Shown piece by piece: positions 1 through 5,351 of a stretch of DNA of 38,866 nt. The number at the start of each line of letters is the position of its first letter. Within the stretch, counting starts at the first letter, position 1. The notes under the pieces were generated by a model. That model was not told the DNA's origin. It saw only the letters and a list, made by a program, of their open reading frames with translations, and did not search any database. Source of the stretch: a virus (taxonomy: Duplodnaviria > Heunggongvirae > Uroviricota > Caudoviricetes). The stretch lies in the IMG/VR virus record IMGVR_UViG_2695420485_000017. One strand, written 5' to 3'. Position numbers and translations under genes: made by a program.

Positions 1-1167
1 TCAGGCCTTATGGTGGAAATAATCACTCAGGCGGGAAAACATGCCGCCTTCCCCGACAGATTCCAGGGTAACCAGCGGCCAGTGCGCCACCTGTTTATCA
101 CGGTCGTAAAGTTCAATTTCCCCTACCCGCTGATGGGCGCTAATTGGCGCGGTGAGCTCTTTACCATCAAGGGTATATTTGGCTTTGATATGTGGAATTT
201 CGGCTTTCGGTAGCACCATCCAGAACTCTTGTTCCGTTCCCAGGTCGATATTTTCTTTATCGCCATACCAGATGCGTTCCGTTCCGACCTTTTTCCCACG
301 GTGCAAAATTTGCACCGTAGTAAAGTTTTGTTGCCCCCAACGCAGTAATTTTCTTGCCTCTTCCTCACGACCTTTTGCACTGTCAGCCCCCATTACCACT
401 GCAATGAGACGACGCTGCCCATCTACAGCCGAAGCAATGAGATTAAACCCGGCACCAGAAGTATGACCCGTTTTCAGGCCGTCAACATTCATGGTTTTAT
501 CCCACAACAACCCGTTACGGTTTTGCTGGGTGATACCGTTCCAGGTGAGACTTTTCTCACTGTACATATGATAAAACTCGGGCTCGCCGTGGATGATAGC
601 GCGAGAAAGCACAGCTAAATCATAAGCCGAGCTATGCTGGCCAGGTGCATCCAGACCATGCACTGTTTCAAAATGCGTATCCTTGAGATGCAGCTTCTCG
701 GCATAGTTGTTCATCATTTCAACAAACTGCCGTTGCCCACCGGCAATATAGTCAGCCAGAGCAACACAAGCGTCATTTCCGGAATCCACAATTAAACCAC
801 GGCTTAAATCACGTACCGATACGCGATCGCCCTCTTTCAAAAACATCAGTGAAGAACCGACAAACACCGGATTATCTTTCGCCCACGCATCGCGCCCCAC
901 GGTGACAATATCGTCTGGCGTAATGCGATGACTATCGATAGCGCGATCCACGACATAACCCGTCATCAGCTTTGTCAGGCTGGCGGGATTGCGCTGTTGA
1001 TGCTCATTACCCGCGGTGAGGATCTGACCGGTGGTGTAATCCATCAATACCCAGGACCCGGCATGAATCTCTGGAGGCTGAGGTAAAAAAGGAATGTTTT
1101 CCGCCGCAAAACCAGACGATAAGTTAAAAACGAACAAAGAAGCAGCAATAATAAGACGGCGTTTCAA
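1..1167 (-). CDS. dacD: D-alanyl-D-alanine carboxypeptidase DacD (PBP6b)
   Basis: Full-length ORF matching recalled E. coli DacD (MKRRLIIAASLFVFNLSSGFAAEN...); probable TTG start at 1165-1167, ORF track extends to 1173. Confidence 0.9.
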   Translation of the reverse strand: MKRRLIIAASLFVFNLSSGFAAENIPFLPQPPEIHAGSWVLMDYTTGQILTAGNEHQQRNPASLTKLMTGYVVDRAIDSHRITPDDIVTVGRDAWAKDNPVFVGSSLMFLKEGDRVSVRDLSRGLIVDSGNDACVALADYIAGGQRQFVEMMNNYAEKLHLKDTHFETVHGLDAPGQHSSAYDLAVLSRAIIHGEPEFYHMYSEKSLTWNGITQQNRNGLLWDKTMNVDGLKTGHTSGAGFNLIASAVDGQRRLIAVVMGADSAKGREEEARKLLRWGQQNFTTVQILHRGKKVGTERIWYGDKENIDLGTEQEFWMVLPKAEIPHIKAKYTLDGKELTAPISAHQRVGEIELYDRDKQVAHWPLVTLESVGEGGMFSRLSDYFHHKA

Positions 1168-1375
1168 CAGCAAACCCTCAGGAGTTTCAAATAGCTGTTC
1201 TTTTTACGGAAATACTTATGAACTGGCTGGAATAAAGTGCAAGAAAATGTGACTACCCTCTCATTTTTATCTGACATGATCTGTTGCCACTCGCTGCCAA
1301 ATTGTGGCGCTAAAGCTGATTAGCACGGTGATATTTGATACTCTGGCAGACAGCAGAAATAACGGATTTAACCTA

Positions 1376-1438
1376 ATGATGAATGACGGTAAGCAACAAT
1401 CTACCTTTTTGTTTCACGATTACGCGCAACACCCCTGA
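1376..1438 (+). pseudogene. sbcB: 5' fragment of exodeoxyribonuclease I gene sbcB, interrupted by prophage insertion
   Basis: Translates MMNDGKQQSTFLFHDY, matching recalled SbcB N-terminus, then diverges (AQHP-stop); divergent to dacD as in E. coli. Confidence 0.55.
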
Positions 1439-1526
1439 GAACCGCCATGAACAAGGGTTTCATGATTTGTGATTTTAGTTTGGTACGCAATTTGGTACAC
1501 AACACAATTTTCACTTCAGCGGGTAG

Positions 1527-1573
1527 TCATCAAACTCACCATAACGAGCATCGTTGATGATGTATGTGATCAC
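1527..1573. repeat. 47-bp direct repeat copy 1 (possible integrase arm-type/att-arm element)
   Basis: tcatcaaactcaccataacgagcatcgttgatgatgtatgtgatcac; about 42/47 identical to copy at 1835-1881. Confidence 0.6.
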
Positions 1574-1796
1574 CACAAATATCACATCTGGACTAGTTCC
1601 GTCTTCATGCGCAAGTATCTGTTCACGCCTCCCTTTCTGCAAATCCTAAAGATGAGATTTTGGGGTTTTGGGATATCTTTTATCCTCAGTTCTCTATCCA
1701 TTCTTAAAAGCAGCAATGGACCATCACCGTGTGATAGTGAGACATCCGCTACGTTAAGCGCAGAGAAATGATGCAGTGGTGGGCTGATTGGCTTGA

Positions 1797-1819
1797 TGAA
1801 AAGGTGGCATAGCGCCACC
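1797..1819 (-). terminator. Rho-independent terminator candidate downstream of tailspike
   Basis: GGTGGC-atagc-GCCACC hairpin followed by TTTT on minus strand. Confidence 0.45.
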
Positions 1820-1834
1820 TACATAACCGGACAA

Positions 1835-1881
1835 TCATCAACCTCACCAGAACGCACATCGTTGATGATGTATGTAATCAC
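1835..1881. repeat. 47-bp direct repeat copy 2
   Basis: tcatcaacctcaccagaacgcacatcgttgatgatgtatgtaatcac; pairs with 1527-1573. Confidence 0.6.
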
Positions 1882-1932
1882 TCCTAAAACTTGCCGATAA
1901 GTATCAGCGTCCTCATTCACTTGGAATGGCGC

Positions 1933-1965
1933 TATAACCCTGCAGATATGGAGGACAGGGTTATA
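1933..1965. promoter_or_regulatory. Perfect 10-bp inverted repeat (TATAACCCTG / CAGGGTTATA, 13-nt spacer)
   Basis: Seen directly; no flanking T-run, so more likely a protein-binding site or RNA hairpin than a terminator. Confidence 0.35.
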
Positions 1966-2006
1966 ACGGAGGCATTGTTAACCGCCTTCCTTGGTGATGA
2001 CTTATC

Positions 2007-3464
2007 TTAAACAACAATTTTAAGGAAGTTTGAAGCATCCTTATAAATGGTGCCCGCGGGGGCGCCGTTTATCTCCTCAAGCGTTTTTACGTTCTTCAAA
2101 ACCACCTTGCCATCTTCCAGAAATTCAATGCATGGTGCGTCGTTGTTCATGTTTATTTTCAACGAACCAACAGCACTACCTCCGTTTCCGCTTATCCATT
2201 CAAGTGACGCAATAGGAAGTGCATTGCCGTTGTGATCTGTCCCTTGTAGCAAGATCATTCCAGTTCCTACCCCTGGTATTCTGATAGCTGCGCGACCACC
2301 ATCCTCTAAAACTACTTCCAAAATTTCTTTAGGATATTTTGTGTGCACCCCTACACGCGTCAGCGAACCACCACCAGGGACGACGGCAATACCTGGAATA
2401 AGCGATTCTGCAAAAAGCATCACTGAGTCTTTATGTGGATTGATTGCTGGCTTATCGTCATTAGTGCCGCTCCCTATCGCAATCGAACCACCATAAGCCT
2501 GAATATTCTTACCTACAGCAAAAGAGCCATCTCCTGCCGCGCGAGTTCGATATCCAATGGCCGCCGCACCAATGCCATCACTTGCAACCCCGCCGGGGTC
2601 TGTAGTGTATCCCGGTCTGGCTTGCGTAAAATAACCTGTTGTAAAAGCCGCCCTTGAAAGCGCTTCCGTTTCTTCACAGAATGCGGCAGATTTTGCGCCA
2701 AGAGCAATGACATTTTTCCCAAATGCAAAAGAGCAGTACCCTTCAGCATTTGGTGAGGTAATTTGATCTGGGTCGCCAGTAGCAGAACCAGCACCACCGG
2801 CAATAGATGCCACGCCATACGTAACGCAGTCATGCCCGAAAGTTGTGGTGTATACCGCGAATGACGCACCGTTTCTGTTAAAAGATACGGAGTAGTCGCC
2901 AATCATGGCTGGGTTTCCCCATGAGTTTTTTGATGGAAGCCCTCGCCAGTAGTTCTTCTCGTCATCTAGCGGCTCAAGATCAGAGCCACCAACTCTAAGA
3001 GATCCTTTTCCCTTATCAAATAACCACATCACCCCCTGAGTCAGTGATGATCCAGTTGGTCTTCCGTAGTTTACCTTCTGCCCGATCAGCTTCATTCCAT
3101 CGTCCTGAGCCAGCTCATTTCTCAGGGTGTTTGGATTATATTTAAGCACGTCAGAAAAATAGTGCTGCCGTACTCCTTGAGCATCATAAACAGCCATAGA
3201 ATGGCCTTGCACAGTTACGAACTTGGCAATCTGTCCGTTATATACCGGATATCCAGCAGCGTTAATGATGATTGGTTGAGAAACAGGAACGTGAGATCCA
3301 TCTTCGTTCTCCACATAAACCTGAATCTGGTTTTCAGGATTTACCGGGTCAGTGTCAATTTTACCGATATAAATTTTTCCATTGGCTACGGCTTTAAAAG
3401 AACGAGCCATAGTGAAGAGTTGCGAAGGCATCGATACGATCACATTGGCTGTAATGTCTGTCAT
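2007..3464 (-). CDS. Tailspike/tail fiber with P22 gp9-like head-binding N-domain and unrelated Gly-rich C-terminal domain
   Basis: First ~110 aa (MTDITANV...[13 protein letters not shown]...) resemble P22 tailspike N-terminus; ATG with GGAG RBS; last gene of late module. Confidence 0.85.
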
Positions 3465-3521
3465 TTAATTTGCTCCAGATACAATGAATCGCCGCAGCAT
3501 GGCTACGGTGAATTTTGGGCA

Positions 3522-3547
3522 TAAAAAAACCCAGCCGAAGCTGGGTC
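3522..3547 (-). terminator. Rho-independent terminator after ant
   Basis: ACCCAGC-ttcg-GCTGGGT stem followed by T7 on minus strand, 18 nt after ant stop. Confidence 0.7.
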
Positions 3548-3564
3548 GTTGCGTTGGTTATCTG

Positions 3565-4500
3565 TCAGTAGTTATGTACTGAAGGAGGCAATTCTTTATT
3601 CTTAAGTCTCATCCATGCGGAAAGATTCGTTGGTCCGTCTGGCTCATTAATATCAACATCTCGTGTGTGGTTTATTAAAACGTCTCTCGCCATTCCGATA
3701 ACATACGAGAATTCATGACCGTAGTCGTAGCATCTGCCGGAATAGTTCGATTGAATTTGTTTTAGCGCCGGATACAGTTCGCGGAATAATGCCTGTGAGC
3801 GGTTGGCATAATCCCATAACCATACAAGGCTGTTTGCTTCTTTTGCAGAAAGCTCGTTTGCTTTCTTCTCTTGTTTGCCGATTAACTCGCCTTCAAGCGG
3901 AACGCGAGCTGCAAGTGACAGAGCTTCGGTAAACTGCTCATCGCTGATTTCTTTGTATGAACACCCAAAATGAGATTTCAGCGACGACCACATGGTAATC
4001 ATTGCCTTCGCCTGTTTTTCTTTTGGCAGAGACTGACCGCGACTCATGACGAGTTGTTTAATGGCTTCCTGCTGTTCAGTGGTGATTTTACCCGGCAACG
4101 CCTTTTTAGCTTTGCGTGGGTTAACTACATGGCCTTTAGTCCAGTAGTCATGCAGCACGCTAAAGCATTCCTCCTGGTACTGAATCAGTTTATCGCGGAT
4201 GTCAGCTCGAACTTTCTCAGGGTTGATGCTGAACAGCCATCCATTTAACTTCTTCAAAGGAAGGCAGAGTAGCTTACGAAGCTTCCCATCAGCGGCAACC
4301 ATATTCATATGAATACAGTTGAACTTATCTAGTTGTTTCATAAGTTTTTGTTGCTGAGTACCCCAACTCATTCCAAGGTTTTCAACGATTGGCTTCATCG
4401 CAACGTATGCAACTCCGGCAGCCATGGCGGTGATAATTTGCTGACCGTTGAATGGTACGTAAGAGGTGTTCACTGCTTCTAAAATTGCTATACTATTCAT
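3565..4500 (-). CDS. ant: Antirepressor Ant (P22 immI)
   Basis: Follows arc in operon with Oarc/Omnt; N-terminus [10 protein letters not shown]... starting at ATG 4500 (ORF track extends upstream via TTG). Confidence 0.8.
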
Positions 4501-4502
4501 GT

Positions 4503-4570
4503 TGGTTTTTCTCCACGGATTTACTGACAACCGAAGCCCTGACTGTTCCCGCAGTTGGGGCTTCAACTTT
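4503..4570 (+). ncRNA. sar: Candidate sar-like antisense RNA covering ant RBS/start
   Basis: Plus-strand -10 TACTAT (4491-4496) inside ant 5' end; hairpin GAAGCCC...GGGCTTC at 4532-4562; arrangement as described for P22 sar. Confidence 0.35.
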
Positions 4571-4730
4571 ACGCGCCAATGCGCCCTTCCTTCTTAAAGC
4601 TTTCCATTACTCTCTGATAAATCTCAGAGTTAACAGACCGACCATTCTCTTCCGCCACCTTGCGTACCAAATCCAATACTTCTTTAGGCCACCGCAAATT
4701 GAACTGCGGCATTTTGCTCATTCCTTTCAT
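4569..4730 (-). CDS. arc: Arc repressor
   Basis: 53-aa product [53 protein letters not shown], near-identical to recalled P22 Arc. Confidence 0.9.
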
Positions 4731-4744
4731 GTTCACCTCACAAT

Positions 4745-4765
4745 ATAGGTCCACGGTGGACCTAT
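4745..4765. promoter_or_regulatory. Mnt operator (Omnt)
   Basis: Perfect palindrome ATAGGTCCACGGTGGACCTAT matching the known P22 Mnt operator. Confidence 0.85.
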
Positions 4766-4769
4766 TGAG

Positions 4770-4798
4770 AATATAGTAGAGTGCTTCTATCATGTCAA
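4770..4798 (-). promoter_or_regulatory. Pant promoter overlapping Arc operator
   Basis: Minus strand -35 TTGACA, 17-nt spacer, -10 TATATT; Arc operator ATGATAGAAGCACTCTACTAT (4773-4793) lies in the spacer. Confidence 0.75.
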
Positions 4799-4820
4799 TA
4801 CACTAACTTGGAGTGATGGC

Positions 4821-5072
4821 ATGGCTAGAGATGATCCGCACTTTAACTTCCGTATGCCTATGGAAGTAAGGGAGAAATTAAAATTCAGGGCGGAGGCGAA
4901 TGGGAGATCAATGAACTCCGAGTTGTTACAAATCGTCCAAGATGCTCTATCAAAACCATCGCCTGTGACTGGATATCGTGACGATGCAGAACGACTCGCT
5001 GATGAGCAGTCAGATCTTGTTAAGAAGATGGTGTTTGATACGCTGAAGGATTTGTACAAAAAAACCACCTGA
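4821..5072 (+). CDS. mnt: Mnt repressor
   Basis: 83-aa product MARDDPHFNFRMPMEVREKLKFRAEANGRS... matching recalled P22 Mnt; RBS GGAG upstream. Confidence 0.9.
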   Translation: MARDDPHFNFRMPMEVREKLKFRAEANGRSMNSELLQIVQDALSKPSPVTGYRDDAERLADEQSDLVKKMVFDTLKDLYKKTT

Positions 5073-5171
5073 CGGTGAGTTAATTTTTGCATTTACCTGG
5101 GCCATATTGACTAATTATAAAATGAGATCAATATTTAATCGCCCAATAACTGGTGTATGTTGAGGTATATC

Positions 5172-5351
5172 ATGGCGAAAAAACCAGGTGAAAACACAGG
5201 AAAAAACGGCGGAATATACCAAGAAGTTGGCCCACGCGGCGGTAAGAAAGACAATTTTGCCACCGTCAAGGACAACGAAAGGCTTCCACCAACAACAAAG
5301 CCAGGTCATGGCTGGGTATTGGATAAGCGAACTCCAGACAGCAAAAAGTAA
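5172..5351 (+). CDS. Small YjzC-like protein, function unknown
   Basis: ATG with GAGGT RBS; own candidate promoter (TTGACT) upstream and terminator downstream; sequence MAKKPGENTGKNGGIYQEVG...GHGWVL. Confidence 0.6.
   Translation: MAKKPGENTGKNGGIYQEVGPRGGKKDNFATVKDNERLPPTTKPGHGWVLDKRTPDSKK

Follow-up and report, generated by a model that had tools for sequence, protein, structure and literature searches.

The prophage considered here is P22-like (Lederbergvirus-type) and adjoins dacD; it lies in a 38,866-nt stretch of virus DNA (IMG/VR record IMGVR_UViG_2695420485_000017), which as a whole is referred to below as the window. The tailspike position of this prophage is occupied by a gene whose product has 485 aa, compared to the 620–730 aa usual for P22-family tailspikes, and the question arises what kind of receptor-binding protein it encodes and which structure of the host surface this protein recognizes. 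The earlier note on this DNA had placed the gene correctly without naming its strand; the ORF is intact and located on the minus strand, with an ATG start and the stop codon at 2007–2009 (Table 1). By ORF order it is the last gene of the virion module, downstream of gp26, gp14, gp7, gp20, gp16 and mnt/arc/ant, and PHROG assignments (needle, gp14, gp7, gp20, gp16, Arc-like proteins, Ant) support this order. Thus the gene has the location characteristic of the P22 family, in which the tailspike gene closes the virion module, preceded by the genes for ejection proteins and by immI (mnt/arc/ant). NCBI lists the identical protein as CUA39123.1, annotated “putative tail spike protein [E. coli]”, and the match in PHROGs is phrog_14251, whose function is unassigned there. 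Proteins of this kind fall into two 90% clusters, of 72 and 66 sequences.

Table 1. Features of the tail protein gene and its surroundings (window coordinates; residues are those of the 485-aa protein).
Feature	Position	Strand	Basis
Receptor-binding tail protein CDS, gene-9 position	2007–3464	minus	ORF listing; complete, 485 aa and stop
P22-type head-binding (virion anchor) domain, residues 1–117	3114–3464	minus	Pfam PF09008 and solved Sf6/P22 N-domains
Linker and recombination junction between anchor and receptor-binding module, residues 113–130	3075–3128	minus	DNA and protein similarity breakpoints
Conserved core, predicted YadA-head-like left-handed beta-roll after a short beta segment, residues 143–345	2430–3038	minus	Family profile, periodicity, conservation
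Variable beta-rich distal tip, natural C-terminus of the family, residues 346–485	2010–2429	minus	Model; identity to relatives
Cassette differing from the P22-like dacD prophage of strain E3	1807–3127		blastn, window 1–5200 against L008
Minimal mobile receptor-binding unit, common to epsilon15/Uetakevirus-like yfgI prophages	1984–3020		blastn against L002 and L003; 90–95% DNA identity
GGAG ribosome-binding site, 8 nt 5′ of the tail protein ATG	3473–3476	minus	Read from sequence
Candidate terminator-like hairpin with a downstream T run, in the interval separating ant from the tail protein gene	3528–3547	minus	Consensus scan only

Pfam Head_binding (PF09008) matches residues 1–112 of the protein (E = 3.4e-63, 211 bits at a cut-off of 24), the structure of the Sf6 gp14 N-domain (7sg7) matches residues 1–119 in a search of solved structures (E = 5.6e-60), and structures of the P22 gp9 N-terminal domain match with E of about 1e-47 to 1e-49. 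The head-binding domain is shared by the P22-family tailspikes (P22 gp9, Sf6 gp14, HK620 gp9 and the CUS-3 endosialidase), and over residues 1–120 it is approximately 80–88% identical to that of the E. coli and Shigella members of the family. The N-terminal 110 or so residues had been described earlier as gp9-like, and the Pfam match bears this out, with the border moved from residue 110 to residues 113–118. Residues 1–117 are thus a standard anchor of the P22 type, which docks the receptor-binding protein on the tail hub.

Similarity to any P22-family tailspike is absent after approximately residue 117, and no match to solved structures of the family extends beyond approximately residue 129, in agreement with the previous observation that the P22 beta-helix sequence is missing. 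In a collection of 50,697 phage records searched with tblastn, coverage in all 186 matching records is restricted to approximately the first 120–140 residues, and none covers at least 80% of the protein; the module following the anchor has not been found in cultured phages among these records. A full-length match to a characterized tailspike, which would contradict the chimeric nature of the protein suggested in the earlier note, was looked for in the same collection and, by sequence, among solved structures in PDB, and none was found.

DNA similarity to other prophages at the dacD site stops at 3128 (blastn), and similarity to the epsilon15-like protein P0003, which has an unrelated anchor, begins at residue 118, with 88% amino acid identity. 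The flanks of the replaced cassette are 96–98% identical to the E3 prophage at dacD, whose tailspike comprises 724 aa. As the same cassette is found on the epsilon15-like anchor, these comparisons demonstrate, at the level of sequence, that the receptor-binding module has been swapped onto the P22-type anchor by cassette exchange, as had been proposed. The mobile cassette corresponds to residues 118–485 (window positions from approximately 1984 to 3127). In P22-family members the gene likewise follows ant and exchange likewise takes place at this linker, and CUS-3 provides a precedent for the same anchor bearing a module other than a beta-helix. Elsewhere the module is attached to epsilon15-like, siphovirus-type and myovirus-type anchors, and the N-terminal domains of its relatives are PF09008, PF18668, CBM_5_12, Phage_tail_fib, or none known. 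In the Acinetobacter phage TRS1 and in Enterobacter prophages the homologue follows the tail tip protein, that is, occupies the position of a receptor-binding protein. Residues 118–485 have been gained as a horizontally exchanged cassette that also serves tails of these three other types.

The remainder of the protein was previously described as Gly/Ala-rich, and indeed residues 121–485 contain 15.1% Gly and 10.4% Ala, with 15.4% and 16.7%, respectively, in residues 190–345. The family profile compared with PDB sequences yields BpaC (2.5e-8), CbpF (2.3e-6) and YadA (3.4e-6), and residue autocorrelation in the core is observed at lags 7 (z = 5.7) and 14 (z = 3.6). With the single tail protein sequence, Pfam YadA_head scores 18.2 bits, which is under the curated cut-off of 25. 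The AF2 monomer model of the module has mean pLDDT 86 and contains no helices longer than four residues in residues 121–485; residues 211–270 are the most conserved stretch, yet the least confident in the model (pLDDT 63–78). All strong structural relatives of the module are non-enzymatic adhesin heads. Taken from profile, periodicity and model, the module is a YadA-head-like left-handed beta-roll with a small tip, and not a depolymerase-type beta-helix. Structure prediction and search of the C-terminal part, suggested in the earlier note, revealed no similarity in sequence or fold to hydrolase, lyase or esterase families (Pfam, NCBIfam, PDB sequence and structure comparison), the only NCBIfam match being a sub-threshold one to the adhesin Ata (E = 0.004).

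Compared to the P22 family, the protein is 130–240 residues shorter and lacks a right-handed parallel beta-helix, a beta-propeller or other catalytic receptor-binding domain, and its sequence gives no indication of enzymatic activity. As the module is not a depolymerase-type beta-helix, the term “tailspike” in the enzymatic sense is unproven for this protein. Residues 143–345 form a beta-roll of 14-residue repeats, the fold of the heads of YadA-type trimeric autotransporter adhesins (YadA 1p9h, UspA1 3pr7, BpaC 7o23, CbpF 9u93, EibD 2xqh), which have in common a left-handed parallel beta-roll with 14-residue Gly/Ala/Ser-rich repeats. Unlike the YadA-family adhesins, the module has neither a signal peptide nor a stalk, neck or membrane anchor and is fused to a virion anchor; YadA_anchor has no Pfam match in the protein at E up to 1, and the C-terminus is a soluble beta-rich tip. 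It also differs from YadA heads in having a conserved polar cluster, R197/N198, H211/D212/C213 and K250/N251. These residues, as well as R157, D162, W182, Y243 and C244, are nearly invariant in the core, and the polar patch of the beta-roll may be a common binding or assembly surface. The protein is likely a homotrimer by analogy, in view of its head-binding domain and of its structural relatives, all of which are trimeric; the models considered here are monomeric.

The tip is modeled with pLDDT of approximately 90 across its last 100 residues, and no strong structural match was found for residues 346–485. It evolves faster than the core: where core identity to relatives is 80–88% or 45–61%, that of the tip is 57–70% or 26–35%, the higher values being those between E. 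coli and Enterobacter alleles, and in relatives carrying Peptidase_S74 the tip is wholly replaced. The C-terminal motif GT.YKD...FLK.V is retained as far as Pseudomonas homologues ending at the same point. The tip may mainly tune specificity.

Relatives of the module are present in E. coli, Enterobacter, Pseudomonas, Stutzerimonas and Acinetobacter, those at 72–78% identity being common in Enterobacter. A phmmer search with residues 141–345 retrieved 57 full-length core matches, followed by multi-stretch matches with E from 1e-15 to 1e-9. The latter, distant relatives are long phage fibers scoring 78–310 bits with YadA_head, and Peptidase_S74 is present in five of the eight that were checked. 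Phage fibers with YadA_head repeats are also the best matches of the module in a viral structure library. Homology of the beta-roll core to these fibers is established at the sequence level, and the roll is related to the tail fibers built of such repeats; by sequence, the closest proteins that do not belong to the immediate family are uncharacterized fibers with YadA_head repeats and S74 (“LbR_YadA-like domain”) from uncultured phage and cyanophage genomes. Core relatives at 45–60% identity also terminate in Peptidase_S74; among all relatives, this domain is present in P0048, P0057, P0074, P0096, P0098, P0135, P0139 and others. The tail protein, in contrast to the YadA_head/S74 fibers, has approximately ten repeats, no S74 chaperone (Peptidase_S74 is absent according to Pfam), its own 140-residue tip and a P22 anchor. 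In the literature we found neither characterized phage receptor-binding proteins with YadA-like heads, with only annotation-level “yadA homologues” in a few phages, nor characterized non-enzymatic P22-like tail proteins.

For Lederbergvirus and Uetakevirus prophages with a single receptor-binding protein, O-antigen specificity can be inferred from the host serogroup (a principle used in PMC10408124). The earlier note had expected a different O-antigen or capsule specificity and had proposed relating the module to the host O-antigen type. Among 5,426 complete E. coli genomes, the module is present in 13 (blastn, distant mode) and the O45 wzx–wzy genes in 30, and all 13 module carriers belong to these 30; in the 5,396 non-O45 genomes the module was not found. 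Within this set the module is associated exclusively with O45, as would be expected of a different O-antigen specificity. The overlap has a hypergeometric probability of 2e-31 with all 13 genomes and of 2e-14 with six of them taken as independent. The association is in part clonal, with four nearly identical human isolates and a resemblance among UTME-9, -10 and -14. The link is drawn from complete genomes; the O-antigen cluster of the window's own host lies outside the window. In UTME-8, the cluster was located by map position.

The O45 cluster is the only feature shown to be common to all carriers. These come from cattle, pigs, chickens and humans, with genomes of 4.87–5.68 Mb; the module prophages are of two types and occupy the dacD, ybhB/bioA, argW region and yfgI sites (in GPEC1446, the argW region and not dacD), and alleles of the module diverge by up to 10% in DNA. 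In two of the four P22-type carriers, the epsilon15-type version is present as well. This co-residence was rejected as independent evidence (p = 2e-5 among all genomes, p = 0.47 within O45): it seems non-random because both versions share the O45 restriction.

The actual receptor would then be the O45 O-antigen. Overall we favor, with moderate confidence, the reading that the gene, carried by a P22-like prophage, encodes a receptor-binding protein of the fiber-like kind, probably without enzymatic activity and with specificity for the O45 O-antigen. According to this reading, a short fiber-like adhesin, trimeric by analogy, would bind the E. coli O45 O-antigen, probably without cleaving it.

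A possible alternative, which we take seriously but consider rather doubtful, is that the module is an O-antigen depolymerase or deacetylase of a novel type, built on an unusual scaffold, with the polar cluster on the beta-roll as its active site. H211-D212-C213, Y243-C244, K250-N251, K258, E264 and R271 are nearly invariant across relatives of 35–60% identity from several genera, and short-tailed P22-like and epsilon15-like podoviruses, known for enzymatic tailspikes, usually gain access to the membrane by processing the O-antigen (PMC11990801). Moreover, the O45 gene cluster encodes acetyltransferases and acyltransferase genes adjoin the homologue in Enterobacter prophages, so glycan acetylation may matter at these loci. 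Against an enzyme speak the lack of resemblance to the enzyme families searched and the non-enzymatic nature of the strong structural relatives, and a core that stays conserved in hosts from E. coli and Enterobacter to Pseudomonas and Acinetobacter, next to a variable tip, is the pattern expected of a fiber shaft and not of a glycan-specific active site. H211 and C213, being two residues apart, would face the same side if in a beta-strand, and K250/N251 align with E264/E265 one repeat later; this register of polar residues looks like structural stacking. Enzymatic activity is probably absent.

Less probable still, and in our opinion quite unlikely, is that the receptor is not the O45 O-antigen but another surface structure or a marker of lineages traveling with O45, for example a capsule or a variant outer-membrane protein. 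Bacterial YadA-type heads bind proteins (CEACAM for CbpF, collagen for YadA, according to structure descriptions), the set of O45 genomes is partly clonal, and the genera in which relatives of the module are found probably do not share identical O-antigens. However, the diversity of carriers in host and genome size, the presence in two types of prophage at no fewer than four sites with alleles up to 10% apart, and the absence of the module from all 5,396 non-O45 genomes argue for the O-antigen.

It is very improbable that the gene is what truncation or decay has left of a longer tailspike. Its length and the RefSeq pseudogene call for the gene of identical length in UTAK-1, where PGAP annotates only the first 128 codons (“missing C-terminus”), might suggest so, but the 485-aa ORF is intact in UTAK-1 as well, the 90% cluster of the protein has 72 members of 484–489 aa, and the C-terminal motif is kept up to Pseudomonas. 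The dN/dS ratio of 0.21, calculated against the epsilon15-like allele, indicates purifying selection on the gene; together with the intact ORF, the motif and a module folding at pLDDT 86, it effectively refutes decay. Finally, a prophage-borne lysogenic-conversion adhesin, that is, an Eib-like trimeric autotransporter and not a virion protein, is hardly credible: the fold resembles the YadA, UspA1 and EibD heads and there is the weak Ata match, but the defining YadA_anchor barrel is absent, as are stalk or neck helices and a signal peptide, the N-terminus is a virion head-binding domain in the gene-9 position, and the distant relatives have features of phage fibers (Peptidase_S74, Phage_tail_fib), none having the anchor.

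An O45-specific receptor-binding protein subtype has been published, comprising Ro45lw gp44, the protein of the CP8-3_Sichuan Uetakevirus prophage, and PhAPEC7 RBP1 (PMC10408124, PMC12737597). It resembles the fiber-like module described here in having O45 hosts and in being exchanged between phage genera on different anchors, and the CP8-3 protein has the same epsilon15-like anchor that bears the present module in other O45 strains. In BLASTP, only the linker motif matches Ro45lw gp44 (8/19 identities, E = 0.04) and the receptor-binding part is unrelated, whereas Ro45lw and CP8-3 are 50% identical over 524 residues. Assignment to a subtype requires at least 30% identity in the receptor-binding domain, over no less than 60% of its length (PMC10408124), and by BLASTP the present module falls outside the Ro45lw subtype. 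The Ro45lw-type module has approximately 520 residues and a weak pectate-lyase-like signal; its O45 tropism has been transferred experimentally, while that of the present module is suggested by association. The latter is a second type associated with O45 and has no relation to the published tailspike of the Ro45lw type.

Enzymatic beta-helix tailspikes are classically exemplified by P22-like and epsilon15-like phages, and a member of this group that recognizes a smooth host with an adhesin-type roll and a small tip would call into question the need for O-antigen cleavage in these short-tailed phages. The “big six” non-O157 serogroups of Shiga-toxin-producing E. coli include O45. A compact (approximately 370 aa), portable and apparently O45-restricted module, unrelated to the O45 type already used in engineering, would be another option for detection reagents, reporter phages or tailocins. 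Resistance to one of the two types need not confer resistance to the other. At present, annotation pipelines miss the module, calling it a pseudogene or a hypothetical protein, and surveys seeking depolymerase-like tailspikes will overlook it.

More speculatively, and we regard this as unlikely on present evidence, the YadA-head-like beta-roll could represent a distinct glycan-recognizing, possibly glycan-processing, class in tailed phages, with the polar patch binding a motif of the 6-deoxy-hexosamine or 6-deoxy-talose type, e.g., D-FucNAc of O45. The latter, to our knowledge, occurs in no other E. coli O-antigen, and its synthesis proceeds via a Pseudomonas-like WbpL pathway. If true, this would explain the close relatives in prophages of Enterobacter, Pseudomonas, Stutzerimonas and Acinetobacter, and would show how infection of smooth strains is possible for P22-like phages, with their short tails, when a beta-helix depolymerase is lacking.

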